In this document: positions 6,360-55,154 of the stretch, one piece after another
How positions within the stretch are numbered: the stretch's first letter is position 1
Layout of the letters: the number at the start of each line of letters is the position of its first letter
Source: an uncultured Candidatus Saccharibacteria bacterium
GTDB taxonomy: Bacteria > Patescibacteriota > Minisyncoccia > Phycocordibacterales > PALSA-1337
Direction of reading: 5' to 3'
Assembly (NCBI GenBank): GCA_964416985.1
Contig: CAYQFS010000002.1
Coordinates: forward strand, 1-55,154
DNA: 55,154 nt
The notes under the pieces: generated by a model
What the model was told of the DNA's origin: nothing
Database searches by the model: none
What the model saw: only the letters and a program-made list of their open reading frames with translations
Position numbers and translations under genes: made by a program

Positions 6360-6641
6360 ATGAGTGGAAAAAATCTACCAGGAGTAACGGTCGAATCCTT
6401 TCCCTTTGATTCTAATAAAAAAATCCTAGAATTTCCGGCTGATGCTCCAGTTTTCAAGACGAAAAGAAAGCCTGCCCGAAGAGATCGAGATCCTGCACCA
6501 AGAATTTCAGGGAGGAATCATTGGCTGATTGTTAATGGTCAATTCCAACTTGTCACATTCACTGGGTCAGTTTGGCGTCCTGTTATGAAGCGCCAGTATC
6601 TGCACCAGCGTTTCCCAGGACTGAATGGTGGCGGCGATTGA
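6360..6641 (+). CDS. hypothetical basic protein
   Basis: 93 aa ORF after the attenuator, A-rich initiation context (AAACCAAAATTATG), followed by a terminator. Confidence 0.6.
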   Translation: MSGKNLPGVTVESFPFDSNKKILEFPADAPVFKTKRKPARRDRDPAPRISGRNHWLIVNGQFQLVTFTGSVWRPVMKRQYLHQRFPGLNGGGD

Positions 6642-7311: not shown

Positions 7312-9405
7312 ATGCCCCTCTTTAAAATCGCAAACGACATGAAGCCGGCTGGTGACCAACCAAAGGCCATCGAAGCCCTTGGAAAAGGCCTCGACAAAGG
7401 TTTGACACATCAGACCCTTTTTGGCGTGACAGGATCAGGCAAAACATTCACCATGGCCAATGTCATTGCAAACCATAACAAACCAACACTCGTCATTGCC
7501 CACAACAAAACGCTCGCGGCCCAGCTCGCTCAGGAGTATCGAGAATTTTTTCCAGACAATGCTGTTCATTATTTCGTTTCATACTATGACTACTACCAGC
7601 CTGAGGCCTACATGCCGGTGACTGATACATATATAGAGAAGGAGGCAATGATAAACGAGGAAATAGAGCGCCTTCGTCATGCTTCAACACAGGCTTTACT
7701 CACGAGAAAAGATGTGATCATTGTAGCGTCAGTTTCGTGCATTTATGGTTTGGGAAGTCCTGAAGAATATGAAAAGGAAAATATGAAGATTGCCGTAGGA
7801 ATGGAATTTTCTCGCTCAGATCTCATCCGGCGCCTCATTGATATTCATTTTGAAAGGACAAATGCAGATATAACCTCGGGAACATTTCGAGCAATTGGAA
7901 ACGTCATCGAAGTGATGCCTGTCAACGAAAAAGTTCTTTACCGAATTGAATATGAGGGAAATACGGTTTCAAAAATTCTTGAACTCGATTCTGTAACCCG
8001 AACGATTCGAAAAGAACCCATAACAGTTTTTATTTTCCCAGCAAAGCATTTTATCAGTACCGATGAGCAGTCAAAGAGAGCATTTAAAACAATTCAAGTC
8101 GAACTCGAAGATCGTCTTGCTGAGCTTGGAAAAGCAGGAAAACTTCTTGAGGCAGAACGACTGAAGAGACGTGTAAAGTACGATCTCGCTCTCATTAAGG
8201 AAGTTGGATATTGCAATGGAATCGAGAATTACTCACGACATTTTTCAGGAAAAGCTCCTGGAGAAGCGCCTGATACGCTTCTTTCATATTTTCCGCACAA
8301 GGCAGATGGTACGCCTGATTTTTTGACAGTGATCGATGAATCGCACGTCACTGTTCCGCAGATCGGTGGAATGTACGCAGGGGACGCTTCTCGAAAAAAT
8401 ACTCTCATTGAGTTTGGTTTTCGTCTTCCTTCAGCACGAGACAATAGGCCGCTTAAATTTGAGGAATTTGAAAAACGAGTTGGTCAGGTTATTTACACTT
8501 CTGCAACTCCAGGGAAATTTGAAAAAGAGAAAAGCGAACAAATTGTTGAACAGATCATTCGTCCGACAGGCCTCATTGATCCCGTTGTTGAAGTGCGACC
8601 AATTATTGAGAATGGCTCGTTCAAAGGTCAGATTTTTGATTTTATCGATGAAGCTGAAAAGGTAATTAAAAAGGGCTTCCGAGTTATTGCCACGACATTG
8701 ACCAAAAAGATGGCAGAGGACCTCAGTGAATTTCTAAAGGAAAAGGGAATCAAAGCCGAGTATCTTCATAGCGATGTGAAAACCATCGATCGAATCACTA
8801 TTCTTACTGATCTGCGAAAAGGAAAGTTTGATGTGATTGTAGGTGTTAATCTCTTGCGAGAAGGTCTTGATCTTCCCGAAGTTGCTTTGATTGGAATCCT
8901 TGATGCCGACAAGGAAGGATTTCTTCGCTCTGAAACGTCCCTCATTCAGATTATCGGTCGAGCTGCAAGAAATATTGAGGGTCGCGTTATTCTCTATGCA
9001 GATCATCGTACCGGTTCCATTGAATACGCAATCAGAGAAACTGAACGCCGAAGAAAAATTCAGACTGATTTCAATACCGCACATGGCATTACTCCAAAAA
9101 CCATTATCAAAAAAATACAGGATATTACCGACCAGCTTCAAACTGAGCACGACAAGGCCGTGAGTGAACTTGTGAAAATTGACGAGGAACTTCTCCGCAC
9201 AAACCCGAAACTTCTCATGAAGCAAAAAAGCAAGGAAATGGAAGAGGCTGTGAAGATTCTTGATTTTGAGACAGCGGCACTTATCCGTGATGAACTACTC
9301 GAACTTGAAGCAAAACTTGAGAAAGAGGAGAAGAGAAAGAAGAAGGAATTAAAGAAAGAAAAGGGGACAGATATACGCAAGAAGAAAGAAGAGTTGAGGG
9401 GGTAA
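7312..9405 (+). CDS. uvrB: excinuclease ABC subunit B
   Basis: GVTGSGKT, AHNKTLAAQL, YYDYYQPEAY beta-hairpin, DESH, QIIGRAARN. Confidence 0.98.
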   Translation: MPLFKIANDMKPAGDQPKAIEALGKGLDKGLTHQTLFGVTGSGKTFTMANVIANHNKPTLVIAHNKTLAAQLAQEYREFFPDNAVHYFVSYYDYYQPEAYMPVTDTYIEKEAMINEEIERLRHASTQALLTRKDVIIVASVSCIYGLGSPEEYEKENMKIAVGMEFSRSDLIRRLIDIHFERTNADITSGTFRAIGNVIEVMPVNEKVLYRIEYEGNTVSKILELDSVTRTIRKEPITVFIFPAKHFISTDEQSKRAFKTIQVELEDRLAELGKAGKLLEAERLKRRVKYDLALIKEVGYCNGIENYSRHFSGKAPGEAPDTLLSYFPHKADGTPDFLTVIDESHVTVPQIGGMYAGDASRKNTLIEFGFRLPSARDNRPLKFEEFEKRVGQVIYTSATPGKFEKEKSEQIVEQIIRPTGLIDPVVEVRPIIENGSFKGQIFDFIDEAEKVIKKGFRVIATTLTKKMAEDLSEFLKEKGIKAEYLHSDVKTIDRITILTDLRKGKFDVIVGVNLLREGLDLPEVALIGILDADKEGFLRSETSLIQIIGRAARNIEGRVILYADHRTGSIEYAIRETERRRKIQTDFNTAHGITPKTIIKKIQDITDQLQTEHDKAVSELVKIDEELLRTNPKLLMKQKSKEMEEAVKILDFETAALIRDELLELEAKLEKEEKRKKKELKKEKGTDIRKKKEELRG

Positions 9406-9522: not shown

Positions 9523-10038
9523 ATGAATAAAGAACATACAAATAATATTGTAATTTACGAGGATAAGAAAGGGAATATTGAGTTGAGGGCGGATATTGAA
9601 AAGGATACGATTTGGGCGACGCAGGAGCAGATTAGTAAGTTGTTTGAATGCGAGAGAAGTGTTATTACGAAACACCTCAGGAATATCTTTAAAGACCAAG
9701 AACTACAAGAAAATTCAGTATGTGCAAAACTTGCACATACTGCTACGGATGGTAAGAGGTATAAAGTTCAATGTTACAACCTCGACGCCATCATTGCAGT
9801 CGGTTATCGTGTCAATTCCAAGAAAGCCACCCAATTCCGTATCTGGGCGACAGGGATATTGAAAAGGTATCTCGTCGAAGGACATGTACTCAATAAACGC
9901 AGACTCGAGGAAGCACCTCAGAAGCTTCTCGGTCTTTATGAGACAATTGCACTTCTTGAGTCGAAAGCCCTTGGTGGAAAATTGAGAGGCAAATTAACCT
10001 TAAAATTAACTGAGGAACTTGAACCACTCGAAAAGTAG
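9523..10038 (+). CDS. RhuM-family DNA-binding protein (N-terminal domain only)
   Basis: TIWATQEQISKLF, YNLDAIIAVGYRVNSKKATQFRIWA motifs. Confidence 0.85.
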   Translation: MNKEHTNNIVIYEDKKGNIELRADIEKDTIWATQEQISKLFECERSVITKHLRNIFKDQELQENSVCAKLAHTATDGKRYKVQCYNLDAIIAVGYRVNSKKATQFRIWATGILKRYLVEGHVLNKRRLEEAPQKLLGLYETIALLESKALGGKLRGKLTLKLTEELEPLEK

Positions 10039-10086
10039 CCTCTTACTATCCACATATCCATTTTACCAACATGGTATACTAGTGCC

Positions 10087-10878
10087 ATGAAAGAAAAAGT
10101 TCTCATTGCCTTGAGTGATGTCTCGCTCGCCACTCTCATTTCTCAGAAGCTTTCCTCAGAAGGCTACAAACCATCGGTTGCTAAAACTGGGGAAGAAGCG
10201 CTCGAACAAATGAAGAATTCAAGTCCCGATCTTGTTCTCATTGACCTTGTTTTGCCAGGCAAAAACGGCTACGACGTTCTTTCTGAAAAAAGTTTTGAAA
10301 GAACCATTACAAAAATTCCTGTTATCATTATTTCAAATACCGGGGCACCGATCGAGATGAGAAGAATTCCTTCAACGACGAGTGTTAAGGACTACATTAT
10401 CAAAGCTCATGTAGAGGTTTCGGATGTTATGGAAAAAGTGGCAAAAGTTTTTGGCTATCAAGGTGGAGCTACTGTCCCAAGAGAGACTCGTGACGATGCT
10501 TCCGCAGGAAATGGAAAAAAGATTCTCTGGGCTGAGGATGATAAATTTTTAAGCTCAATTCTTTTGAAGAAATTTGAGTCATCGGGCTATACAGTTATGA
10601 AGGCCGACAATGGGGATCAAGCTCTCGAAATGATTCACAATACTACTCCAGATATAGTAGTTCTCGATATTCTTCTTCCGGGACTTAGCGGTTTCGATAT
10701 TCTCCAAAAGATTCATATGGAAGAAAAATTTAGAACGATCCCCGTCATCATGCTCTCAAATATGAGCCGCCCAAGTGATCTCGAAAAAGCCAAGATGCTC
10801 GGTGCCCAAAAGTTTCTCGTAAAAGCAGCAGTTTCTCTCGACCAAATTGTCAAAGAGGTAGCGAGTCTCATTAAATAG
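10087..10878 (+). CDS. tandem receiver-domain (REC-REC) response regulator
   Basis: two CheY-like domains (DLVLIDLVLPGKNG; AEDD...DIVVLDILLPG), no output domain. Confidence 0.88.
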   Translation: MKEKVLIALSDVSLATLISQKLSSEGYKPSVAKTGEEALEQMKNSSPDLVLIDLVLPGKNGYDVLSEKSFERTITKIPVIIISNTGAPIEMRRIPSTTSVKDYIIKAHVEVSDVMEKVAKVFGYQGGATVPRETRDDASAGNGKKILWAEDDKFLSSILLKKFESSGYTVMKADNGDQALEMIHNTTPDIVVLDILLPGLSGFDILQKIHMEEKFRTIPVIMLSNMSRPSDLEKAKMLGAQKFLVKAAVSLDQIVKEVASLIK

Positions 10879-10895
10879 TTTTATATAAAAGCAAA

Positions 10896-10915
10896 CCGCC
10901 AGTGTGACCTGGCGG
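10896..10915. terminator. terminator between convergent genes
   Basis: CCGCCAG-tgtgac-CTGGCGG stem. Confidence 0.6.
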
Positions 10916-10922
10916 CTTGTTG

Positions 10923-11480
10923 TTATGGTGAGGGTGGACGCTCGATTTCGATAATATGATGAGCAATAGCAAATCGTGTGAGGCCTGCGACATTGTGGAT
11001 ACCAAGCTTTCTCATGATTCTTTCGCGGTGTGTCTCGACAGTTCTCACTCCGATATTCATCAGTACAGCGATTTCCTTATTGGAAAATCCTTCCGCGATC
11101 AATTTCAAGGTCTCGTTTTCTCTTTCTGAAAGCGTTGGCGACAGTTGTCCGTTATTGCCGTATAGCTTGTCTAGAAGGTGTAATGAATCCTGTGGTATTC
11201 CTGGGGTTTTTTTAAAAGAATCACATAAATCCCTTAGCGCAATAAGAACTATATGATCTTCAGCTTTAATGTCCGGAGAGACTTCGGTGTAAGATATACT
11301 TCTGGCTAATTGTCGAGCGATCAATTTTAAAAGTGAAAGCTCGAATGTATTAATAAGTCTATTTTGTGTTCCTTGTCCGAGGATCAAGCCGCAGATTTCG
11401 ATGAGTTTTATCTGTTCTCTACGAAGTGGCTCAGCCGCTCTTATGGTGGTTGAATTGAGAGTAATGGCGTTGGCATTCAT
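10923..11480 (-). CDS. LuxR-family HTH regulator with unknown N-terminal domain
   Basis: C-terminal LSERENETLKLIAEGFSNKEIA...TVETHRERIMRKL; start moved to ATG 11480 because a TTGACA-N18-TACCAT promoter overlaps the longer ORF start. Confidence 0.82.
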   Translation of the reverse strand: MNANAITLNSTTIRAAEPLRREQIKLIEICGLILGQGTQNRLINTFELSLLKLIARQLARSISYTEVSPDIKAEDHIVLIALRDLCDSFKKTPGIPQDSLHLLDKLYGNNGQLSPTLSERENETLKLIAEGFSNKEIAVLMNIGVRTVETHRERIMRKLGIHNVAGLTRFAIAHHIIEIERPPSP

Positions 11481-11579
11481 ATTTTTCAAGGGGTTGTGGG
11501 TTAAACATCTCTTCCCGCATGGTAGCTTGGAGATATGCCTGTTGTCAATCACTCAAATTTGTGATAATATCCTCCCATT

Positions 11580-14195
11580 ATGGCTGGATCCAAAAAGACA
11601 TCTTTTCATGCTGAAGGCAATATGGAAGGAAAAAACAGTGACAAAATCATTGTTAAGGGAGCTCGTACTCACAATTTGAAAAATATTACCGTCGAGATGC
11701 CTCGAAACAAGATGATTGCCATCACTGGGCTTTCAGGATCAGGGAAATCATCACTTGCATTCGATACGATTTTTGCAGAAGGGCAGAGACGATATATAGA
11801 ATCACTTTCTTCGTATGCTCGACAGTTCCTCCGCCAAATGCAAAAACCTGATGTCGATGAGATCATAGGACTTTCACCAGCTATTTCCATTGACCAAAAG
11901 TCCCGCTCAAATAATCCTCGTTCGACTGTTGCGACTATTACAGAAATTTACGACTACCTTCGAATTCTCTTTGCTCGAGTCGGGAAACCTCACTGTCTCG
12001 TCTGTGGGAGGGAAATTCATCGTATTTCAAAAGAGGAAATTTTCAATACCGTTTTGAAACAAGTTCTTTCTCATGAAAAGTCTGGGAAAAAAGTAATGGG
12101 AGTTGAGGTTAGTGCTCAGAAAGTTCTCATTTACGCTCCGGTTATCGTGGGGAGGAAAGGAGAGTACTACCAGCTTCTCTACGACCTTCTTGGGAAAGGT
12201 TATGACCGTGTAAAAATTGATGGAAAAGTTATGCGCCTTCGTGAGCAGATTATTCTCGATAAAAACAAGAAGCATGACATTGACGTTCTTGTTGATGAAA
12301 TATTCTTGAGCGAATTTAAGGACAAAAAGCAGTCGGGAAATGCCAAGGAGCGTCTCTCAGAGGCTCTTGAAAAGGCGATTGATGAAGCCCAGGGTCTTAT
12401 TAAAATAGAATTTCCTGATGAGGAAAAACTGATGTCCGTAAAGTTCATGTGTCCATATGATGGCTTTTCATATCCAGAAATAGAGCCCCGCCTGTTTTCC
12501 TTCAATTCACCGTATGGGGCCTGCCCTACCTGCAATGGTCTTGGAACAAAAGAATTTTTCAGTGATGAAGAATGTCCTTCATGTAAGGGTGCCCGTCTTC
12601 GTGAAGAGGCTCTCTTCGTAAAAATTGGAGACAGGAATATTGTAAATGTCACGGCGCTTTCGATTGAAGAAGCAAAAAATTTCTTCGAGAAAATTACTTT
12701 GACTGAGACAGAAAAGGAAATTGCAAAAGTTATCTTGAAGGAAATTGAATCTCGTCTCCAGTTTATGCTCAATGTAGGTATTGAATATCTCACACTCGAC
12801 CGCCGTGCTCACACGCTCTCGGGTGGAGAAGCGCAGAGAATTCGTCTTGCCTCACAGCTCGGTTCCGGCCTCGTCGGAGCTCTCTATGTGCTTGATGAAC
12901 CGACAATCGGGCTTCATCAGCGGGACAATGATCGTCTCATCAAGACGCTTGTTGATCTTCGTGATCTCGGGAATACCATCATCGTTGTTGAACATGATGA
13001 AGATACAATGTTTGCATCCGATTACATCATTGATATTGGTCCAGGAGCTGGAGTTCACGGAGGTAAGGTTGTTGTTTCCGGATACCTCGACGAACTTTTG
13101 ACTGCAAAGAAAAATGACTCAGATTCCCTTACACTCTCATACCTTCGAGGGGAGACGAAGATCGATCTTCCGGAGACTCGTCGAGAGCCAAAGGGTAAAA
13201 TCATGATTCGAGGTGGAAATATATTTAATATAAAGAATTTGAATATTGATATTCCTCTCGGTTGTTTCAATGTTATCACAGGAGTTTCTGGTTCGGGAAA
13301 ATCATCCTTTATGTATGAAATTCTTTACAAAAATCTCCAGGGTCAGCTCGAACGAAGGCACCGCACGTCACAGATTTATAATGCTGAAAGTTTTACCGGA
13401 GGCGAATACCTCGGCCGAACAATTCTCATTGATCAGTCACCAATTGGCCGAACACCTCGGTCAAATCCTGTCACATACACTGGAGCATGGCAGCACATCC
13501 GTGATCTTTTTGCCGCATCCGATGAAGCACGAGCACGAGGCTGGGGTCCAGGGCGATTCTCCTTTAATGTAAAAGGTGGTCGATGCGAAGCTTGCCAGGG
13601 TAATGGAGAAATTGCCGTTGAAATGCACTTCCTTCCGACTGTTTATGTCCCCTGTGAGGTCTGCGGTGGAAAGAGATTTATGAAAGAAACTCTTGAGGTT
13701 AAATATAAGGGAAAGAGTGTCCATGATGTGCTTCACATGACAATCGAAGAGTCGATGAAATTCTTTGAAGATATTCCTGCTGTGAGTGATCGTCTCGAGA
13801 CTCTTTCTCAAGTTGGTCTCGGGTATCTTCAGCTTGGTCAGTCTGCAACCACCCTTTCGGGCGGAGAAGCCCAACGTGTAAAGATTTCTGCAGAGCTCTA
13901 TCGTGCTCATCTCCAGAAGACTATTTACCTTCTCGACGAACCGACAGTTGGTCTTCACTACGAGGATGTTCGAAAGCTCATCGAAATTCTCCAGCACTTG
14001 GTTGAAAAGGGAAATACTGTTGTTGTGATTGAACACAACCTCGATCTCATCAAATCTTCTGACTATATTATCGACATTGGACCTGAGGGAGGGGATAAGG
14101 GAGGAAAAATAGTTGCAAAAGGGACGCCAGAGGATGTTGCACGAAATGAAAAGTCGTATACAGGAAAATATTTGAAAAGGGTTTTGAAGAAATAA
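11580..14195 (+). CDS. uvrA: excinuclease ABC subunit A
   Basis: two ABC modules ([26 protein letters not shown] x2) and zinc fingers. Confidence 0.98.
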
Positions 14196-18583: not shown

Positions 18584-18656
18584 GGGCCCTTAGCTCATCT
18601 GGTAGAGCACCTCATTTGCAATGAGGGGGTGGCAGGTTCGAGTCCTGTAGGGTCCA
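18584..18656 (+). tRNA. tRNA-Ala(TGC)
   Basis: cloverleaf: acceptor GGGCCCT/AGGGTCC with G3:U70, anticodon arm CCTCA-TTTGCAA-TGAGG, T arm GCAGG-TTCGAGT-CCTGT; CCA not encoded. Confidence 0.96.
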
Positions 18657-46455: not shown

Positions 46456-46872
46456 ATGACTACAGCTACAAAAACTCACGATAAATATATTGAAACTGTT
46501 GGCCGAAGAAAGACTTCGATTGCCCGCGTTCGAATGACTCCTGCCACAAAGACGTCGTATGAAATTAACGAAAAGACTGTCGAGGCATATTTTCCTACAA
46601 AAGAACTCCAGATCACAGCTCACGAAGCTCTCACAACATCAAAGCTTGCTACTACCAAGTTCAAGATTACTGTTCTTGTAAAGGGGGGAGGAATCAGCTC
46701 ACAGGCAGATGCGATTCGACATGGTATCGCCCGAGGCCTCATTGAATATGACAAGGAACTTCGAGGAAGGCTCAAGAAAGCTGGACTCTTGAAACGAGAT
46801 CCGCGAGCAAAGGAACGACGAAAGTTTGGACTCAAGAAGGCTCGAAAGTCTCCACAGTGGAGCAAGCGATAG
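46456..46872 (+). CDS. rpsI: 30S ribosomal protein S9
   Basis: GRRKTSIARV, GGGISSQADAIRHG, RKSPQWSKR. Confidence 0.98.
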   Translation: MTTATKTHDKYIETVGRRKTSIARVRMTPATKTSYEINEKTVEAYFPTKELQITAHEALTTSKLATTKFKITVLVKGGGISSQADAIRHGIARGLIEYDKELRGRLKKAGLLKRDPRAKERRKFGLKKARKSPQWSKR

Positions 46873-47004
46873 TAGCTATTCAACTCATGAAGAAACGGCC
46901 GAGGTTATCCACTCCGGCCTTTTCTTTTATCTTTTGATAGGAGTATACTTAGTACCAGTAAACCGACGTAAACCAAAGTTGTACAGATAGAAAGACAATT
47001 GCGC

Positions 47005-47115
47005 ATGTTCTTACTATTTAAAACATTGGAATTGATCAAAAAGATTCGTGACTGGATGACTCCGCCCGTAGGGTATGAGGATGAAAGAGGCTTTCACGAA
47101 GTTGCCAAGGAGTGA
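47005..47115 (+). CDS. putative 36-aa protein with GYEDExGFH motif
   Basis: MFLLFKTLELIKKIRDWMTPPVGYEDERGFHEVAKE, between a -10 element and terminator 47120-47150. Confidence 0.5.
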   Translation: MFLLFKTLELIKKIRDWMTPPVGYEDERGFHEVAKE

Positions 47116-47119
47116 GGTT

Positions 47120-47153
47120 AGGGATCGAGGCTTGTAGATGCTCGATCCCTTTC
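47120..47153 (+). terminator. intrinsic terminator
   Basis: AGGGATCGAG/CTCGATCCCT perfect 10-bp stem. Confidence 0.7.
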
Positions 47154-47205
47154 TATTTAGAAAATTCTTGCAAAAAGACTCTACGGACCGTATACTATTT
47201 TTACT

Positions 47206-47766
47206 ATGGACGAAAATACTAAAGAAAATAATGAGGAAGTTATAATCGAAGCTGATGAAAACCTTGATGACTCTGTTCTTGCTGAGGAATCAGCACTTGA
47301 GACAGTAAAATCCCTCAAAGAAAAGCTCAAAAAGGCACTTGCAGAAAAGCAGGAATATTTAAATAGCTGGCAAAGGGACAAGGCTGAATTTATAAACGCA
47401 CGAAAAAGAGACCAGGAAGCGCAGAAGGACTTTGCTCGTTTTTCTAATGAAAATTTGATCTCTGAACTCATTCCAGTGCTCGATAGTTTTAATATGGCAA
47501 TGGGAAACAAGGAGGCTTGGGAAAAGGCTGATAAAAATTGGCGAGTGGGTGTTGAGTACATTGCAAATCAGCTCAAGAAAACCCTTGAGGATTTCGGTTT
47601 GAAGGAAATTGATCCTCTTGGAAAGCCATTTGATCCGATGCGAGATGAAGCAATAGAAGACGGGAAGGAGGGTAATCTCGTGACCACAGTCATACAGAAG
47701 GGTTATGAGCTTAATGGAAAGGTGCTCAAGGCGCCGAGGGTGAAGATTGGGGAGGTTAAGAAGTAG
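47206..47766 (+). CDS. grpE: nucleotide exchange factor GrpE
   Basis: RDKAEFINARKR, LIPVLDSF, FDPMRDEA, QKGYELNGKVLKAPRV. Confidence 0.96.
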   Translation: MDENTKENNEEVIIEADENLDDSVLAEESALETVKSLKEKLKKALAEKQEYLNSWQRDKAEFINARKRDQEAQKDFARFSNENLISELIPVLDSFNMAMGNKEAWEKADKNWRVGVEYIANQLKKTLEDFGLKEIDPLGKPFDPMRDEAIEDGKEGNLVTTVIQKGYELNGKVLKAPRVKIGEVKK

Positions 47767-47770
47767 GTAC

Positions 47771-47797
47771 AAAAAATCCGCACTAATGCGGTTTTTT
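47771..47797. terminator. bidirectional terminator
   Basis: AAAAAATCCGCA-ctaa-TGCGGTTTTTT. Confidence 0.75.
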
Positions 47798-47841
47798 GCG
47801 AAGTTTACCTTCGTGGTTTCCCCTTCTCGCTAGATAGATAA

Positions 47842-47870
47842 AGCATAGGCGATCTTGTACATAAAGTCAA
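47842..47870 (-). promoter_or_regulatory. sigma70 promoter TTGACT-N17-TATGCT, no downstream ORF
   Basis: near-consensus hexamers on the minus strand, ~65 nt before the bidirectional terminator. Confidence 0.55.
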
Positions 47871-47887: not shown

Positions 47888-47902
47888 TGTGGACATAGAC
47901 CG
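47888..47902 (+). repeat. attL-like site (core TGTGGA plus P' arm ACATAGACCG)
   Basis: TGTGGA repeated at 55100-55105; arm is an 8/10 inverted match to 55093-55102. Confidence 0.75.
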
Positions 47903-48190
47903 TAAAACATCGAACACCATCAAAATCTTTGTTTTTGAATGGTATCAATTCTTAAATCACCGTAATAACGGGAAAATAACGGTGAAATTGTAGGAAAAAT
48001 TTATTTTTAAGTACCACAATTCTCATATTAGAATTGTATGTATTTCTCTTTCTTCTTGTACTGGCGCGAATTTTTTTCAAAAAGAGCTTTTGCCCGTATT
48101 AGCGGGCAATTAGCGGGTAATGAAAGCTTAATTTTTCTTTAACTAGTGAATCAAGCCTTAAAATGATAAAATCGTATTATAAATGCCTTT

Positions 48191-49813
48191 ATGTTAAAAA
48201 CTTCCGACCAACAATTTAAAGAATGGCTTACTAAACCAGAAGGACTAAATTTAGAGTTCAAAAAAGCGGAGAATAGTTTCAGTGAATCAAAAGATTTGCC
48301 TGATTATTGTGCTGCCCTGGCTAACGAAGGTGGCGGGAAACTAATCCTCGGAGTAACGAATGATAAGCAAATAACAGGCACGAAGGCTTTTGAAGGTAAT
48401 ACAGACTCACTATCTCATAAAATTTTGCAAATCATAAAAATACGAGTAGATGTTGAAGAAACAATTATTGATGATAAACGCATTTTAATTTTTCATGTTC
48501 CAAGTCGTCCTATAGCAACAATAATTAGTTCTGGCGGTGATTATAGATATCCTATGCGGGCAGGTAGTTCTTTAGTAGAAATGACTCAAGAAAAGATAAG
48601 AGAAATTCACAGCGAAACGCAATCAGATTTTTCAACACAGATTGTTCCAAAGTTAGCAATTGATGATATGGACCCGTCAGCAGTCGATACTTTTAAAGCT
48701 CTTTGGGCAAGACAGCAAAACAATGATGAGTACCTTAATTTCTCGATGGAAAAGGTATTGAGTTCAATTCACGTTCTTTCAGATGAAGGAATAAACTATG
48801 CTGGTCTTGTTCTTTTTGCCAAAAGCGAGAAAATAAGCGAATTATTGCCTGGTGCAGAAATTATCTTTGAATGGAGGCAGGAAGAAAAAATAGGGCATGA
48901 CTTTCGTAAAGAATGGCGAGTTCCTTTCTTCTCTATCTTTGATGATATTTGGGCGACTATCAATGCAAGAAACATAAGGTTCCCTTTCCAAGAGGGCTTT
49001 ATACAAAGAGAGGTTTTTGCTTTTAATGAGAAAACTATTCGAGAGGCTGTTTTAAATGCAGTAACACATAGAGACTACAATATTCAGTCACAATCAGTGT
49101 TTATTAAAGCTTCGCCCGAACAATTTTTAATACTAAGTCCTGGTGGTTTTGTAAAAGGCATTACAGCAGAAAATATACTTAATCGTTCCGCTTGGCGTAA
49201 CCGTCGTATTGCAGAAGTGTTGCAAATGGCGGGCTTGGTAGAAAGGGCGGGGCAAGGTATGGATACAATTTTCGGTAATACTATTCGTGAGGGTAAGGGG
49301 GTCCCAGATTTTAGCGGTAGCGATAATGATTGGGTTAGTTTGCATATACCAGCAAAGGTGAAAGATGAACAGTTTATTCTCTTTTTAGAGAAAGTGACAA
49401 ATGACAAACAAATTACTCTCTCCTTTGAAGAAATTTGTGAGCTAGAGAGTATTAGAGAACATCAAAAGGTTACAGATGTCAGTTCAAAAGAGAAATTCTT
49501 GAGTTTGGGAATTATTGAAAAAGTGGGTAGGACCAGTGGGGCAAAATATATTCTTTCTCATAAATGGTATCAATACAAAGAGAGACCAGGTTTGTATACA
49601 AAGATTGTTGGGCTTTCTCGCGAAAAAAATAAAGAACTAATTCTTACTCATCTTATAAAAAATCCTGAAGGAGCAAAAAGTGCTGATTTTCAAGACGCAC
49701 TCGGGCTTGACCAAAAGACGGTTAATAATATGTTACAAGAATTAAAGCAGGAAAATAAAGTTCGATTTGAAGGCGCTAAAGCCTCGGGAAAATGGTTTAT
49801 CGCAAGTAGTTAA
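48191..49813 (+). CDS. AlbA_2/Schlafen-domain ATP-binding protein (RecG-C/HATPase-like plus wHTH)
   Basis: LEFKKA..AALANEGGGKLILGV; IREAVLNAVTHRDY; RNRRIAEVL..GLVERAGQG; C-terminal wHTH. Confidence 0.88.
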   Translation: MLKTSDQQFKEWLTKPEGLNLEFKKAENSFSESKDLPDYCAALANEGGGKLILGVTNDKQITGTKAFEGNTDSLSHKILQIIKIRVDVEETIIDDKRILIFHVPSRPIATIISSGGDYRYPMRAGSSLVEMTQEKIREIHSETQSDFSTQIVPKLAIDDMDPSAVDTFKALWARQQNNDEYLNFSMEKVLSSIHVLSDEGINYAGLVLFAKSEKISELLPGAEIIFEWRQEEKIGHDFRKEWRVPFFSIFDDIWATINARNIRFPFQEGFIQREVFAFNEKTIREAVLNAVTHRDYNIQSQSVFIKASPEQFLILSPGGFVKGITAENILNRSAWRNRRIAEVLQMAGLVERAGQGMDTIFGNTIREGKGVPDFSGSDNDWVSLHIPAKVKDEQFILFLEKVTNDKQITLSFEEICELESIREHQKVTDVSSKEKFLSLGIIEKVGRTSGAKYILSHKWYQYKERPGLYTKIVGLSREKNKELILTHLIKNPEGAKSADFQDALGLDQKTVNNMLQELKQENKVRFEGAKASGKWFIASS

Positions 49814-49983
49814 TAGTAGTTAATAATTGGCACTAAATCTTAAACAAAAGTACTAGTTTAAAGGATAAAAAGTGTCTTAAATAAGTTAAGAATAAGTTGA
49901 GTTTGTTTTAAATGAGGTATGTTTTTTTTAAATGCAAAACATTGTAAAGTGGCCGTTTTTATGGCACAATACTTCTCAATACG

Positions 49984-51192
49984 ATGAACTCGGAAAAGGT
50001 CCAAAAAATTGTAGAGAACATTGGTACTCCCTGCTTTATCTACGACAAAGCGGTTCTTGACCAGAATATACAGAGGGTTTTTACATCTGCTTCTCATCAC
50101 GAATTAAATGAAAGAATAAAAATTTACATCTCATATTTTTCTAATTCTAATCCGGCTTTATTTTCTGAAATTAAGAATGAAAAAATCGGACTCTTACTTC
50201 AAACCGAGGAAGAATGGTACCAGCTTCAGAAAGGGGGTCTTCAGAAAAATATGCTTGTTTCGCCCTCATTTCTTTCTAACGAAGAAATTGATTTTTGGGT
50301 TAGCAAAGGAATTAGAGTAAATCTCGCCTCGCTTGAGGAAGTTCAGTATACATTGGAAAAATACCCAGATTATCCTATCAGCTTTAGGTTGGACTTTACC
50401 TTTTGGCAAAATCAGAGAACAGGAATAAAGAAGAAAGAGCTACCTGCTTTATTAGAAATACTACATAAATACAATAGAAAACCTCACTCATTTCATGTAT
50501 ACGCTGGTACAGGAAGTAGTTTGTCACAGATGAAAAAAGCGGCACAAAGGACACTAAAGCTCTATGAGTCTCATTTCCCTGACGTTGAGGAAATAAACTT
50601 TGGCGGTGGTTTTGGTTTTGACTACACCGCTAAAAAACCAGAGGATAAGCATTTTGATTGGGATAGTTATTTTGCTTTTTTAACCACTCTTATTTCAGAA
50701 AGTAAGGTCCCTAAAAACGTAAAGTTATCTTTTGAGCCAGGTCGTGATTTGTTCGCAGATATTGGAGTTCTTGCGACTAGGGTAAAAAGAGTCCTGAATA
50801 ACAGGTCTGTTTTAGACGTCGCTACTGATAGCTCATTTGTTTATATGCCTTCAGCGACAAAGAGGGCGCGAACTCATCAATTAAATTTTATGAGGGACTA
50901 CAAGATTATGACGGACTTCAGAGCTACAAAAGCTATGTTAAGTGGTTGTACTACTCTCTCAAAAGATTATCTTCTACCTGAAAAGGTTGAGGTACCATCA
51001 GATATAAAAATCGGAGACTTAGTAATCGTAAAAGATGTTGGGGCTTATGGTGCAACGCAACATCTTGAATTTTTGAATAAAAGACCAGCACCGGAAGTCT
51101 TGATAAATGGCGATGAAAACTACTTGATTTCAGAGAGAGGGGCCCTTGAAGATAGGGTACGATATTTGGTTTCTCCCATTAAGAAAATATAA
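49984..51192 (+). CDS. fold-III PLP decarboxylase (LysA/ODC family) homologue, atypical active site
   Basis: GTPCFIYD, INFGGGFG, FEPGR, DVGAYG; YAxKAN motif appears as SYFSNSN. Confidence 0.85.
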   Translation: MNSEKVQKIVENIGTPCFIYDKAVLDQNIQRVFTSASHHELNERIKIYISYFSNSNPALFSEIKNEKIGLLLQTEEEWYQLQKGGLQKNMLVSPSFLSNEEIDFWVSKGIRVNLASLEEVQYTLEKYPDYPISFRLDFTFWQNQRTGIKKKELPALLEILHKYNRKPHSFHVYAGTGSSLSQMKKAAQRTLKLYESHFPDVEEINFGGGFGFDYTAKKPEDKHFDWDSYFAFLTTLISESKVPKNVKLSFEPGRDLFADIGVLATRVKRVLNNRSVLDVATDSSFVYMPSATKRARTHQLNFMRDYKIMTDFRATKAMLSGCTTLSKDYLLPEKVEVPSDIKIGDLVIVKDVGAYGATQHLEFLNKRPAPEVLINGDENYLISERGALEDRVRYLVSPIKKI

Positions 51193-51986
51193 TGAAAATT
51201 GAAGACACAAAACTCTATACATCAGCCGACACCTACTTTGAAGGTCCTGATGGTATGAAAAATGAAGTAGCGATGTGGTACATTGCCTCTGGTTTACTCA
51301 TGAGAGAAATTGCAAAAAGAAAGGGTAATTTACCTTTTGGCGGACTAGGTAAAACACAAGGATATGCCATTACTCCTGACAAAGCTGACACTCTTGATTT
51401 GCTAGACCTTTGTAGCGGTCCTGGTAATTTTGTAAATCACTTAAGCTTTGCTTTTCCCTGGCTCAATGCCGTATGTGTTGATGTGAATGATACTTTCTTG
51501 AAGGCGGGACAAAAGCAGTTTGATAAATGGTCCTTTATCAATGCAGATGTTACAAAGCTTGATTTGGGTAAACAATTTGATTGCGTTACTGCCAGCTCTG
51601 CTTATCACCACATAGAACATAGTCAAAAGATAGATTTCTTAAAAACTATTAAGAAGCACTTGAAGAAGGGTGGTTTTGCTTTGATATGTGAAAACTTCTT
51701 GCCTGAATATTCTTCAGATGAAGAAAGAACTGAAAGCATAAAGCTGTATTACAGCGAACTTATAAGCTACTACAAAGAGGGTAATGCAACAGAAAAATCT
51801 ATTGAGGCTATTGATGAGGTCTTTAAGCTTGAATTAGCCGGAGTGGAAGAACATAAGGTAACAAGAGCTATATTTGAAAAACAGGTGAAAGAAGTGGGAT
51901 TGTCCATAGATATTGATATTGTCGTTTGGCAATCTGAAAAGTTGCGTTCAAGTAATGCAGGTTCGCATGTTTTGGTTTTATCATAG
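51192..51986 (+). CDS. class I SAM-dependent methyltransferase
   Basis: LLDLCSGPG motif I, VCVD, NAD, FDCV.ASSAYHH, LKKGG; TAATG overlap with the upstream gene. Confidence 0.9.
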   Translation: MKIEDTKLYTSADTYFEGPDGMKNEVAMWYIASGLLMREIAKRKGNLPFGGLGKTQGYAITPDKADTLDLLDLCSGPGNFVNHLSFAFPWLNAVCVDVNDTFLKAGQKQFDKWSFINADVTKLDLGKQFDCVTASSAYHHIEHSQKIDFLKTIKKHLKKGGFALICENFLPEYSSDEERTESIKLYYSELISYYKEGNATEKSIEAIDEVFKLELAGVEEHKVTRAIFEKQVKEVGLSIDIDIVVWQSEKLRSSNAGSHVLVLS

Positions 51987-52000
51987 ATAGCCTCGGACCC

Positions 52001-52029
52001 TTGCATTGAATTATACCTCTACGTATAAT
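52001..52029 (+). promoter_or_regulatory. sigma70 promoter TTGCAT-N17-TATAAT
   Basis: near-consensus, 7 nt before ATG 52037. Confidence 0.65.
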
Positions 52030-52036
52030 ATGGGGT

Positions 52037-52852
52037 ATGAAGGAAAAACCTATAGTTATATGCGGTGACTGGTACGACATTGCTTTCGCTAATTTCGTAC
52101 AGAAAGATAAAGAGTTATACGAAAATTACTATTTACTTCTCCAGGTCCCTCGTTATCGTGTCTCTGATACTGATGAAAAATATCGAGTTATAAATTATTG
52201 GGACGAACAAGGCTTGCTCTTGAATGAGCGAGGTAAGACGGACTCGTGGCGCAAGTTTAGTATCCTTGATGTTATTTGGATACGCATACTCCAAACACTC
52301 AAAGAGTACGGCATGGAAGGCGACAAAATTTTACGTCTCAAATCGGACCTATTTCAGGTCCAAGATAAAGAAGGACGATATACGGAGTTTGCTTTCTGGG
52401 TGAATATGGCGCACCACTACAAAGATGTATTTTTGATTGTGTTATCAGATGGCAGAGGGACCATAGCCACAACAACCGACATTGAGTTTCAACAGCTTAT
52501 CGAGCCATTTAAGCAGTCATTTATTTCCGTTGATTTTCGATACATTGTTCGGTCCATTATCTTTCCTAAAAATAAAGGTAAAAAGGTTGTTGAGTTTAAT
52601 CGCAAACTCGATGAGAAAGAAATTGAGCTATTGAACGCACTCTCGAATGTGAACGTTGAGACTGTTACAGCGCATTTGAAGAAAGGCAAGATTGACCGTA
52701 TCGAATGGAAAAGCGTTGAGCAAAACCCTGAACGGCTTTTTGAGATGTTGAGAAAGAAAATTTATGAGTCTCCAAACCAGACCATCACCCTCAAAAGGCA
52801 AGATGGAAAAGTTCTTTTTATAGAGCAGAAAAAGAGTCAGAAATTACCCTGA
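52037..52852 (+). CDS. MerR-family HTH protein
   Basis: YRVINYWDEQGLL...WRKFSILDVIWIRIL..LKEYG. Confidence 0.8.
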   Translation: MKEKPIVICGDWYDIAFANFVQKDKELYENYYLLLQVPRYRVSDTDEKYRVINYWDEQGLLLNERGKTDSWRKFSILDVIWIRILQTLKEYGMEGDKILRLKSDLFQVQDKEGRYTEFAFWVNMAHHYKDVFLIVLSDGRGTIATTTDIEFQQLIEPFKQSFISVDFRYIVRSIIFPKNKGKKVVEFNRKLDEKEIELLNALSNVNVETVTAHLKKGKIDRIEWKSVEQNPERLFEMLRKKIYESPNQTITLKRQDGKVLFIEQKKSQKLP

Positions 52853-52940
52853 CTCGAATAAGGTGACCGAGTAGCGGAGCCATTATATTTCCCGAGACAG
52901 ATGACCGATAAACGGAGTTTGCTCACAAGAAAAATATGAA

Positions 52941-53102
52941 GTGCTTACTCCACAACAAGCTCGGAAGTATCTCAAGAAACGAGACATTTCCGACGAACGA
53001 TTGAAAGTGATACTTGGGTATCTGTACGGATTGGTCGAAACAATGATTAAACAAGAACGAAAAAGCTATGAGCGACATATCAGACAAACAGCACGAGGCT
53101 AA
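52941..53102 (+). CDS. small hypothetical protein (53 aa from GTG; possible frameshifted start)
   Basis: VLTPQQARKYLKKRDISDERLKVILGYLYGLV..., a helical small protein typical upstream of LSRs; not in ORF track. Confidence 0.45.
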   Translation: MLTPQQARKYLKKRDISDERLKVILGYLYGLVETMIKQERKSYERHIRQTARG

Positions 53103-53547
53103 CAAACAAAACGCTCTTTTGGGCGGTGTTAAAACCGACGAGGGTAAGGCTATTTCTCGCTACAACGCCGTACGTCATGGAATTTTGAGAGAAACCATAA
53201 CGGAGTACGAGAAGATAGACCATGAACGCATATTCAACGAGTTTGCCGACTTCTATAAGCCTGAAAATCTCGTTGAGGAAATTCTGGTTGAACGTTTGAC
53301 TGTGGCTTATATAAAAATGGCTCGTGTCTCTCGGGCAGAAAACGAGCTTATGAAAAGTGCTATTGACCCCACGATACCTTTTGGCGAGGGTGTTTCCTAT
53401 TATGAAAAGATTGGATATAAGGTGGTCCTGCCATCGGATAAAGTGACACTACTTTCCGATGTCTATGCTCGATATGAGACTGCTGTAGAAAAGCGTTTCT
53501 ATAGGGCTATGAACACCCTTAATGAGCTTAAAAAGACATACGCATGA
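53068..53547 (+). CDS. hypothetical mobile-element protein
   Basis: GGVKTDEGKAISRYNAVRHG motif; ATGA coupling to the LSR. Confidence 0.75.
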   Translation: MSDISDKQHEANKQNALLGGVKTDEGKAISRYNAVRHGILRETITEYEKIDHERIFNEFADFYKPENLVEEILVERLTVAYIKMARVSRAENELMKSAIDPTIPFGEGVSYYEKIGYKVVLPSDKVTLLSDVYARYETAVEKRFYRAMNTLNELKKTYA

Positions 53548-55139
53548 GTACTAAATCCTCAAAAATGGGTTTGTTTGGTAAAAAGCTCAAGATTGAGGAT
53601 TATGAGTTTGCCCTTAGCTATTGTCGTGTATCTTCAAAGAAACAAGAGCTTGAGGGTAGTGGGCTTGATAGCCAAGAGACCCGAAATGAACAACTCGCAA
53701 AATATCACAAGCTAAAAATCGAGAAAGTTTTTCGGGATACGTTCTCGGGTGGTGGCGATTTCATGAAGCGTCCCGACATGCGTGAGCTTATTGAATATCT
53801 CGACGCACACCCGTACAGAAAATACGTAGTTATCTTTGATGACCTCAAGCGCTTTGCTCGTGACACAAAATTTCACTTTGAGCTTAGGACGGCTCTTGAG
53901 GCTCGCAACGCTTTACCTCTGTGCTCAAACTTTGTCTTTGACGATACGCCCGAAGGTGTCTTTGTCGAGACAATTCAAGCGGCACATAATCAGCTCGAAC
54001 GCGAACAGAATAGACGACAGGTGATAGAAAAGCAGAGAGCATGTCTTGAACGTGGCTATTGGGCTTTTCACTCGCTTAAGGGCTATTCAAAGAGTAAAAC
54101 GAGCATTGGTAAGCGTGATGAGCCTAACGAGCAAAATAAGTACATCAGAGAGCTTTTTGAGGGGTTCTTTTCCGGTCGTTTTCAGCAATTTATTGATGGG
54201 GCACGTTTTCTCAAAGAGACGAAAGTGCTCGGGAAGGCACACCCTGAAAAATATATTGAGACGGTTAAGAGTATTCTCACGCAACCTTTCTACGCAGGCT
54301 TTTTAGAATACCCGAAATGGGAAGTGTCTCGACGACAAGGAATACATGAACCGACTGTCAGCCCTGAATTGTTTGAGGCGGTCCAAAAGAAAATCACCCG
54401 TAACTACAATGTTGTAAAAGTAAGACAAGATATTAACCCTGATTTTCCTTTGCGTGGTTTAGTGAGCTGTGCAGTTTGCAAGAGTAAACTCACTGGCGCA
54501 TGGTCCAAAGGCAAAAAACAATTGTACCCGTATTACTTTTGTCAGAATAAAAAGTGTCCGCTCAAGAGTTCTGTTATCCGAAGGAAGGACCTCGAAGATA
54601 AATTCGAGGAGCTCTTGCAGAAGATGACAACCGACGACGATATTATCGAGCTCGCAAAAGCTGTTTTCATTGACGCAAAAGAAACTGATGAAAAAGAGTC
54701 AGTTTTGGAAAAGAAAACGTATGCCAAGCGAAAAGAAGAATGTGAGGCTGATATTGAAAACTATATGGAGCGTGCCGGTAAAGCCAAGGTCCCGTCAGTG
54801 ATTGCTCAATACGAAAAGAAAATCGAGAAGTTGGCGGCCGAACTTGAACAATTGGAGTCAGATAGCCTTGCCGAGTACGACTATGGCGTACCTTATCGAA
54901 CAGCCTTGGACAAAGTAATGGGCGTGCTTAAAAACCCTTATCCTACTTGGGCGGAGTTCGATGTTTTCGGGCAACAGAAGTTCTTTTCATTCCTTTTTGA
55001 GGTGAATTTAGAGTACGACAAAAAAGAGGGTTATCGAACACCAAAATATACAGTCCTTAAAAGGGTTTTAGAGGAAATTGAGTCCTCTGGCTCGGTTGAT
55101 GTGGAGATGACGGGAGTCGAACCCGCAAACCCCAGCTAG
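53544..55139 (+). CDS. large serine recombinase
   Basis: YCRVSS catalytic Ser, DDLKRFAR, recombinase domain, zinc ribbon CAVC...YYFCQNKKC, coiled coil. Confidence 0.95.
   Translation: MSTKSSKMGLFGKKLKIEDYEFALSYCRVSSKKQELEGSGLDSQETRNEQLAKYHKLKIEKVFRDTFSGGGDFMKRPDMRELIEYLDAHPYRKYVVIFDDLKRFARDTKFHFELRTALEARNALPLCSNFVFDDTPEGVFVETIQAAHNQLEREQNRRQVIEKQRACLERGYWAFHSLKGYSKSKTSIGKRDEPNEQNKYIRELFEGFFSGRFQQFIDGARFLKETKVLGKAHPEKYIETVKSILTQPFYAGFLEYPKWEVSRRQGIHEPTVSPELFEAVQKKITRNYNVVKVRQDINPDFPLRGLVSCAVCKSKLTGAWSKGKKQLYPYYFCQNKKCPLKSSVIRRKDLEDKFEELLQKMTTDDDIIELAKAVFIDAKETDEKESVLEKKTYAKRKEECEADIENYMERAGKAKVPSVIAQYEKKIEKLAAELEQLESDSLAEYDYGVPYRTALDKVMGVLKNPYPTWAEFDVFGQQKFFSFLFEVNLEYDKKEGYRTPKYTVLKRVLEEIESSGSVDVEMTGVEPANPS
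55093..55105 (+). repeat. attR-like site (P arm CGGTTGATGT plus core)
   Basis: core TGTGGA 55100-55105 inside the LSR ORF. Confidence 0.75.
55102..55126 (-). other. tmRNA/tRNA-Ala-like 3' end fragment (T arm, acceptor 3' strand, discriminator)
   Basis: GCGGG-TTCGACT-CCCGT-CATCTCC-A; upstream bases lack the GGAC or anticodon arm expected of an intact gene. Confidence 0.65.
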
Positions 55140-55154
55140 CGAGAAGGAGTTCCA

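Follow-up and report, generated by a model that had tools for sequence, protein, structure and literature searches.

At the right-hand end of the 55,154-nt stretch of Patescibacteria DNA analysed here (hereafter the window), six open reading frames (ORFs), all on the same strand, lie between the core host genes rpoA, rpsI and grpE with a bidirectional terminator on the left and, on the right, a very small gene for an RNA resembling transfer-messenger RNA (tmRNA), hereafter the mini-tmRNA gene, which is cut by the window edge. The last of the six ORFs encodes a large serine recombinase (LSR), the sole recombinase of the segment, in which no other recombinase or transposase was found, and a copy of the hexamer TGTGGA stands at either end, 7212 bp apart (Table 1). 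The G+C content is about 0.44 in the flank versus 0.32-0.40 within the segment. We consider it roughly 85% probable that positions 47894-55099 together with one TGTGGA core form a 7.2-kb integrative island, inserted into a Patescibacteria chromosome by its own LSR at the 3' end of the mini-tmRNA gene. The ends of the putative island, its target, the domain architecture of its integrase, the attachment site within the integrase ORF and the target habit of the integrase family are all read from the sequence and its comparison with related contigs, which are designated by L numbers below.

Table 1. Features of the putative island and its immediate flanks in the window.
Feature	Position	Strand	Evidence or remark
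Host-flank small transcription unit, outside the island	47771..47870	-	promoter-like TTGACT-N17-TATGCT at 47870-47842 (sigma-70-like)
attL core TGTGGA	47888..47893	.	host DNA to the left, element DNA to the right; putative crossover GG at 47891-47892
Detached 3' end of the integrase ORF	47889..47993	+	encodes VDIDRKTSNTIKIFVFEWYQFLNHRNNGKITVKL*; in frame only in the excised circle
Cargo, 540-aa AlbA_2/Schlafen and HATPase_c_4 protein	48191..49813	+	Pfam 1.6e-14 and 1.2e-10
Cargo, 402-aa protein resembling pyridoxal phosphate-dependent decarboxylases, weak match	49984..51192	+	Pfam Orn_Arg_deC_N 3.3e-5, near the curated cut-off
Cargo, 264-aa S-adenosylmethionine-dependent methyltransferase	51192..51986	+	Pfam Methyltransf_25 1e-13; PADLOC mad2-like 3e-13
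Core module, 271-aa MerR-like helix-turn-helix protein	52037..52852	+	Pfam MerR_1 3.7e-5
Core module, 159-aa protein, 4-nt overlap with the LSR start	53068..53547	+	no family match
Large serine recombinase, 531 aa as integrated	53544..55139	+	Pfam Resolvase, Recombinase, Zn_ribbon_recom
attR core TGTGGA	55100..55105	.	putative crossover GG at 55103-55104, equal to C72-C71 of the mini-tmRNA acceptor stem
Mini-tmRNA, 3' 53 nt of 70 nt, tRNA-like domain only, serving as attB	55102..55154	-	truncated Rfam tmRNA match, E=8e-6

A 6-mer shared by two regions is within the reach of chance alone, and the delimitation of the island is carried by comparison instead. L002 carries a 4.6-kb element whose left end reads ttaattTGTGGAcatagaccgtaaaacatc; it is about 91-93% identical to the window over some 70 nt inward from TGTGGA and shows no match outward. 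The same pattern holds for the left end of L100, where homology to the window begins at TGTGGA next to an unrelated flank. In L003, with the left end ctacacTGGTGGACATAGACCGTG, homology begins at GTGGA, again beside an unrelated flank, and this flank keeps TGGTGG, the displaced native ...CCACCA end of the L003 tmRNA, so that the identity shared by attL and attR is narrowed to GTGGA. The left breakpoint is common to four independent elements (the window, L002, L003 and L100), and at all six right junctions examined (the window, L002, L003, L005, L132 and L134) GTGGA runs into the 3' end of a tmRNA or tRNA-Ala gene; for L005, L132 and L134 a simple search did not locate the left end of the element. 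Independent Logan assemblies of two sequencing runs again contain the junctions of the window element, with attR in L001 and attL in L006, which argues against an assembly chimera.

The joined ends of the window element read ...ctcggttgaTGTGGAcatagaccg..., from which the phage-type attachment site (attP) can be reconstructed as CGGTTGATGT-GG-ACATAGACCG. We scored ten flanking positions for inverted matches about each of 14 candidate centres per attP. In the window attP, 8/10 positions match about GG and at most 5/10 about any of the other 13 centres, and a binomial estimate for at least 8/10 matches at one single centre is about 4e-4. GG is the best of the 14 centres in all three reconstructed attP sites (window 8/10, L002 7/10, L003 7/10) and is flanked by the perfect palindrome ATGT/ACAT. 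In LSR recombination the crossover dinucleotide lies at the centre of the dyad. The predicted attP junction of the window element is ...GAGTCCTCTGGCTCGGTTGATGTGGACATAGACCGTAAAACATCGAAC..., with ...AAGAACAATCTTTTTTCCCTGTGGAGATGACGGGAGTCGAACCC... as the predicted bacterial site (attB). A preliminary description, made from the window sequence, had proposed TGTGGA as common to both ends of a 7,212-bp LSR element, the 8/10 inverted arms around a central GG and the element ends that follow from them. We found the repeat at the two positions, recomputed the same symmetry and recovered the same ends as homology breakpoints in L002, L003 and L100 and as GTGGA at the six right junctions. Its assignment of the crossover to GG agrees with the best dyad centre of three attP sites; the comparison itself reaches as far as GTGGA, with GG singled out within it by symmetry.

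What, then, is the target? The window ends 49 nt past the right core, and L001 adds 88 nt, which hold the missing 5' 17 nt of the mini-tmRNA gene (L001 2133-2149) and complete a 70-nt minus-strand gene, GGGGAUG...CAUCUCCA (L001 2080-2149). The idea that the right flank is a canonical tmRNA cut by the window end is ruled out by this complete gene. The mini-tmRNA has a cloverleaf fold in which G3:U70, the discriminator A73 and a normal T-arm are present and a 6-bp stem carries a 12-nt loop in the place of the anticodon loop. The Rfam tmRNA model RF00023 spans model positions 1-374 on the L001 copy with 306 internal positions deleted, and the copies in L065 and L073 likewise span 1-374 with about 300 deleted; the scores, 21 bits for L001, 39 bits (E=2e-12) for L073 and 19 bits for L065, are all below the gathering score of 47. 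Syntenic homologs lie between grpE and dnaK, convergent with grpE, in L021, L065 and L073, and the relatives found through GrpE are Taylorbacteria- or Paceibacteria-like Patescibacteria. These genes are 69-71 nt long and without a tag reading frame, the mRNA-like domain being replaced by a loop of 9-12 nt; G3:U70 and A73 are present in the copies of the window, L021 and L073, and the L065 copy is without G3:U70. Neither the window nor the loci of the relatives found through GrpE contain an smpB gene.

This type of gene is already known, because tmRNAs of about 65 nt without a tag reading frame ("Standard, no CDS") have been catalogued as rare forms in some plastids, phage DS6A and one bacterial group (PMC11915505). 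ARAGORN did not call the mini-tmRNA, and in 36 relatives it predicted neither a tRNA nor a tmRNA gene close to grpE. The same program also misses the tmRNA of L003 11556-11951 / L004 5092-5487, which Rfam finds with 106 bits (E=2e-40), and annotation by ARAGORN alone can overlook tmRNAs of the candidate phyla radiation (CPR). On the acceptor stem, the central GG corresponds to C72-C71, and since A73 and the two bases after it come from the element, the mini-tmRNA gene stays intact; in the relatives at tmRNA and tRNA-Ala genes the RNA gene is likewise left intact. Two points go beyond the preliminary description: attB coincides with the 3' end of a tRNA-like gene, and the integrase reading frame crosses the attachment site.

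The integrase has the Pfam domains Resolvase (PF00239, 1.4e-18, residues 24-171), Recombinase (PF07508, 1e-9) and Zn_ribbon_recom (PF13408, 5.3e-9), matches a PHROG integrase family at 3.5e-63 and has distant matches in the PDB to the A118 integrase RD-ZD (4KIS/6DNW, E=5e-5) and the TP901-1 catalytic domain (9e-4). An RVSS motif occupies residues 28-31, with Ser30 as the putative nucleophile by homology. Its clade is very large, with 2572 matches at E<=1e-20. Close homologs, 72-78% identical, were traced to their contigs and adjoin a full tmRNA next to smpB (L002, L003/L004) or tRNA-Ala(UGC) (L005, whose integrase is 77% identical to that of the window), and distant homologs of 44-46% identity adjoin a tmRNA (L132) or tRNA-Ala(UGC) (L134). 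At every junction examined the integrase ORF runs antisense into the RNA gene, and at least 82 of the 118 full-length homologs end in an antisense T-arm peptide, for example VEMxGIEP. As far as sequence can tell, the verified targets are all alanine-identity RNA genes, namely tmRNA, mini-tmRNA and tRNA-Ala. About 12 homologs lack the T-arm peptide end, several of them having tails homologous to the detached tail of the window, and on the un-integrated contigs L129/L130 and L131 no tRNA or tmRNA gene follows the integrase. The window itself has a tRNA-Ala(UGC) gene at 18584-18656 (+) that ends ...GGGTCCACA and is unoccupied; this 3' end, with its TCCACA core, is the same end that is used as attB in L005, which makes the gene a potential secondary integration site.

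The LSR ORF extends 34 nt past the right core. Its codons up to about position 55103 are encoded by the element, and the remainder is the antisense of the host mini-tmRNA gene, the last 11 codons before the stop reading EMTGVEPANPS. Across the predicted circle junction the integrase frame continues for 34 codons into the left end of the island, and the first 25 nt or so of this detached tail segment double as the P' arm of attP. In the window, L002, L003 and L100 the tail frame has no stop for 32-40 codons, whereas a stop comes within 3-5 codons in the other two frames, and its product contains the conserved motif DIDR..SN.IK.FVFEWY.F.N. Between the tail segments of the window and L002 there are six substitutions, five of them at third codon positions, and the window tail aligns with the real C-termini of the un-integrated homologs P0047, P0084, P0070 and others. 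As judged from these reading frames, integration swaps a conserved 34-residue C-terminal tail for 11 host-encoded residues. The coding-type conservation of the tail in turn implies that such elements pass through a circular state often enough for selection to keep it.

Drawing on the established biochemistry of LSRs, from which we infer that cleavage falls exactly at GG, that the subunits rotate and that a directionality factor is needed, as well as any functional effect of the tail swap, the life cycle of the island could run as follows. In the excised circle the integrase gene would cross attP and encode a protein of about 554 residues with the conserved C-terminal tail. Integrase dimers would bind attP and attB, the latter being the last bases of the 70-nt tmRNA-like gene between grpE and dnaK, and synapse; all four strands would be cut with a 2-nt stagger at GG (C71-C72), the subunits would rotate by 180 degrees and the ends would be rejoined. 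Upon integration the integrase would trade its native 34-residue tail for 11 residues translated from the antisense strand of the host T-arm. The full-length integrase gene would be restored by excision, a step that would probably need a directionality factor, for which the MerR-like protein encoded in the island is the best candidate. We tentatively suggest, as a combined idea about which we are doubtful ourselves, that the tail swap may be a built-in switch in which only the circle-form integrase, with its DVD..R..SN..K..FW tail, is competent for integration and the hybrid is altered in activity or directionality, making integration self-limiting, and that the clade may recognise the alanine-identity acceptor/T-arm DNA of tmRNA, mini-tmRNA and tRNA-Ala genes while tolerating almost any other half-site. 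If this is true, the clade would offer a landing-pad-free integrase for a near-universal bacterial site.

Several observations weigh against an active, self-inserted island, or against parts of this picture. No empty site was found for the exact window element: a look-up with the exact GrpE gave only the occupied attL, and patterns of the mini-gene had no match in GTDB genomes or JGI metagenomes. Neither was a circle junction of this element observed, as a search with ATGTGGACATAGACCGT gave 42 matches that are due to chance except for L100 and possibly L112, both of which are integrated left junctions. The reconstructed attB sites score at most 5/10 at every centre, with no clear dyad symmetry, and their left arm varies between hosts. 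This asymmetry departs from the textbook picture of the site and leaves the assignment to the LSR family unaffected; it may reflect tolerance in one half-site. The MerR-like protein and the 159-aa ORF are candidates for the directionality factor, and a prophage-form integrase without its native tail could be impaired. On the side of the island, the un-integrated homologs carry the predicted join GATGTGGACA as one continuous stretch, ccgttGATGTGGACAgtg in L129 and gacGATGTGGACATAAtaag in L131, where it sits intact within the integrase ORF. These intact joins would be the nearest available confirmation of the circle junction, with the limit that the L129 contig has no terminal overlap to show that it is circular. 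The reconstructed empty site reproduces the gene order of the island-free L021, L065 and L073, in which a promoter, a short RNA and the grpE terminator come directly after the mini-tmRNA gene. The circle junction and the empty site that the preliminary description had predicted are thus matched in relatives, by a continuous join and a restored gene order respectively, and neither was recovered for the exact element.

How do other explanations of the locus compare? The ends could be correct and the 2-bp crossover another dinucleotide within GTGGA (GT, TG or GA). When attL is set against attR in the window, L002 and L003, strand exchange can be placed no more finely than GTGGA, and the TG centre (offset 1) reaches 6/10 in L002 and L003, near the 7/10 of GG; we nevertheless regard a shifted crossover as unlikely, since GG is the top centre in all three attP sites (8, 7 and 7 of 10) between the palindromic ATGT and ACAT, and the dyad centre is where established biochemistry places the crossover of an LSR. 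A greater, although still minor, chance is left to the view that the island is rightly delimited and has become a fixed, non-excising remnant whose hybrid integrase is inactive or too weak, which is compatible with the delimitation given here. Integration does remove a tail that is conserved in the family, no circle-form contig of the window element was found, and a passage in PMC4701971, with reference to Magrini 1999, reports the prophage-form integrase IntX of Mx8 as less active. Against a remnant, no damage is seen in the ORF, in either attachment site or in the detached segment that codes for the tail, the coding-type substitutions between the tail segments of different elements imply recurrent circular passage, and un-integrated relatives exist.

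Far less probable than either, in our estimation, is that the TGTGGA repeat is coincidental and that the segment has other ends or arose by transposition, by a tyrosine integrase or as an assembly chimera. Sharing of a 6-mer between two regions is expected by chance and the window stops 49 nt past the right core, which leaves some room for this view, but the segment is without any other recombinase or transposase, four independent elements have the left breakpoint and six the right core in common, and both junctions are confirmed in separate assemblies. Insertion by the LSR of the island at the mini-tmRNA 3' end remains our preferred explanation.

The island resembles phage LSR systems such as those of Listeria A118/LI, TP901-1, Bxb1 and phiC31 in the Resolvase, Recombinase and zinc-ribbon architecture of the integrase, in a short attP with an imperfect dyad about a non-palindromic 2-bp centre and in the few bases of identity between attP and attB. 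In contrast, these phage integrases, to which the sequence similarity is only distant, target protein-coding genes or intergenic sites rather than the 3' end of an RNA gene, and here attP lies inside the integrase ORF of a 7-kb carrier without phage structural genes. Streptococcal integrative and conjugative elements (ICEs) at rumA (PMC4701971) share with the island an attachment site inside the serine integrase gene and C-termini that differ between the excised and integrated forms; they are, however, large conjugative elements of Firmicutes with a protein-coding target and a reciprocal exchange of 3' ends, whereas the tRNA-like target of this small CPR island stays intact. Serine recombinases at tRNA genes are described as rare, with Mycobacterium actinomycete ICEs (AICEs) at tRNA-Leu and the resolvase-like recombinase of phiRSM1 at tRNA-Ser as reported cases (PMC3218068); they are like the island in serine-family integration at tRNA genes and differ from it in clade, host and target gene. 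In 2014, the authors of Islander wrote that no serine-recombinase integration at tRNA genes was known (PMC4383910). Integrative elements of the Mx8 IntP/IntX and SSV types (PMC4383910, PMC4701971, PMC7253208) have attP in the integrase gene, an integrase that is altered or split and tRNA targets, as seen here, but their recombinases belong to the tyrosine family, the chemistry differs and the identity blocks are much longer. The tRNA- and tmRNA-gene islands of the Islander class also target the 3' end of an RNA gene, the end being restored by element DNA; they have a tyrosine-family integrase by definition, whereas the window island has the serine family only, only three bases (A73 and the next two) have to be restored, and the displaced fragment is too short for Islander-style detection.

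Neither the targeting of tRNA genes by a serine recombinase nor an attachment site inside a serine integrase gene is therefore new, both having rare precedents. In open-access text we found no serine integrase reported at a tmRNA gene, nor did we find a description of a large CPR clade combined with tmRNA-type targets and a conserved, swapped tail. The claim of the preliminary description to a new integrase/att pair is credible in this sense, tempered by the precedents for its unusual traits (PMC3218068, PMC4701971) and by the very large clade to which it belongs. The island offers a sequence-defined integrase/attP/attB set for the Patescibacteria, a phylum with very few genetic tools; the LSR clade to which it belongs is large and uncharacterised, and in nature targets the conserved 3' end of tmRNA or tRNA-Ala genes. 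As one half of attB is a near-universal RNA-gene sequence and the other varies freely from one natural site to the next, these enzymes could be tested as integrases without a pre-installed landing pad. The arrangement of attP inside the integrase gene moreover gives a way to ask whether the C-terminal tail of an LSR affects its activity or directionality, and island finders that rely on tyrosine integrases and displaced tRNA-gene fragments will miss islands of this kind.

The remaining genes of the island fall into cargo and a core module next to the integrase, and no phage structural genes were found in scans with Pfam and PHROG. The 540-aa protein also matches a PHROG "DNA helicase" family (3e-40) and, weakly, Argonaute-associated proteins in PADLOC; its candidacy as a second, ccrAB-like recombinase is ruled out by its AlbA_2 and HATPase_c_4 domains. 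Cargo varies between elements: in L134, positions 1-2707 upstream of the MerR-like protein encode type I restriction-modification subunits and GmrSD, and the varied cargo of the window and L134 suggests small defence-type islands. The MerR-like protein is a candidate regulator or recombination directionality factor, with homologs of 27-56% identity (BLASTP) immediately preceding the LSR gene in L002, L003, L005 and the un-integrated L129, and a Pfam MerR_1 protein at the equivalent position in L132 and L134. The 159-aa protein, which has no match in Pfam, PHROG or PADLOC, is 55-61% identical to same-position ORFs in L003 and L005; a 160-aa ORF stands there in L132, and the ORF is absent from L002 and L129.

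A terminator-like hairpin occurs at 48090-48109 (-) in the non-coding left part of the island, with no minus-strand gene apparent. LOOT RNA (RF03000, 71-87 bits), of which none was found in the window, occurs inside the L002 element (7772-7896, -), upstream of the integrase near the contig end of L005 (1003-1118, -) and in the chromosome of L073 (3591-3705, -). In L131, a 105-kb contig (ENA ERZ27235839), the attP-form integrase at 10001-11674 sits among unannotated ORFs of very large size (1077, 714 and >1598 aa) and a gene for a beta-helix protein, and this contig may be a phage or another large replicon of a CPR bacterium.

Finally, the host flank contains a second small RNA candidate beside the mini-tmRNA. 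In the window, the ribosomal-protein/rpoA cluster ends with rpsI and, immediately after it, grpE (46456-47766); in relatives a small conserved ORF stands between grpE and dnaK. From the promoter-like site in Table 1, an RNA of about 65 nt would run to the bidirectional grpE terminator (47778-47791) on the strand of the mini-tmRNA gene and directly downstream of it, the island splitting the two by 7.2 kb. In L021 and L073 a promoter-like site is found at the equivalent position, with a complementarity to the mini-tmRNA of 7-9 nt only, which is not significant; the neighbour there bears UGGUGGA(C/AG), which could pair with the 3' end of the mini-RNA plus CCA, though not to a significant degree. 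In the window, the 5' end of the neighbour RNA is complementary to mini-tmRNA nt 25-36 with 12 Watson-Crick pairs, or 14 pairs with one further G-C and one G-U pair, and the 12-nt complementarity was reached by none of 5000 shuffles. L065 has the same layout (~6530-6640, -) with a different sequence and a perfectly complementary 15-mer, again reached by 0/5000 shuffles. Cofolding of the two RNAs gives a predicted change in free energy (ddG) of -23 kcal/mol for the window and -30 kcal/mol for L065. A new two-piece tmRNA made of both RNAs was considered and set aside: the pairing would compete with the tRNA-like fold of the mini-tmRNA, because it would occupy the 5' strand and the loop of its own stem, and the partner RNA has no convincing tag reading frame. 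Another possible role of the neighbour RNA is antisense regulation of the mini-tmRNA, which is itself potentially inhibitory.

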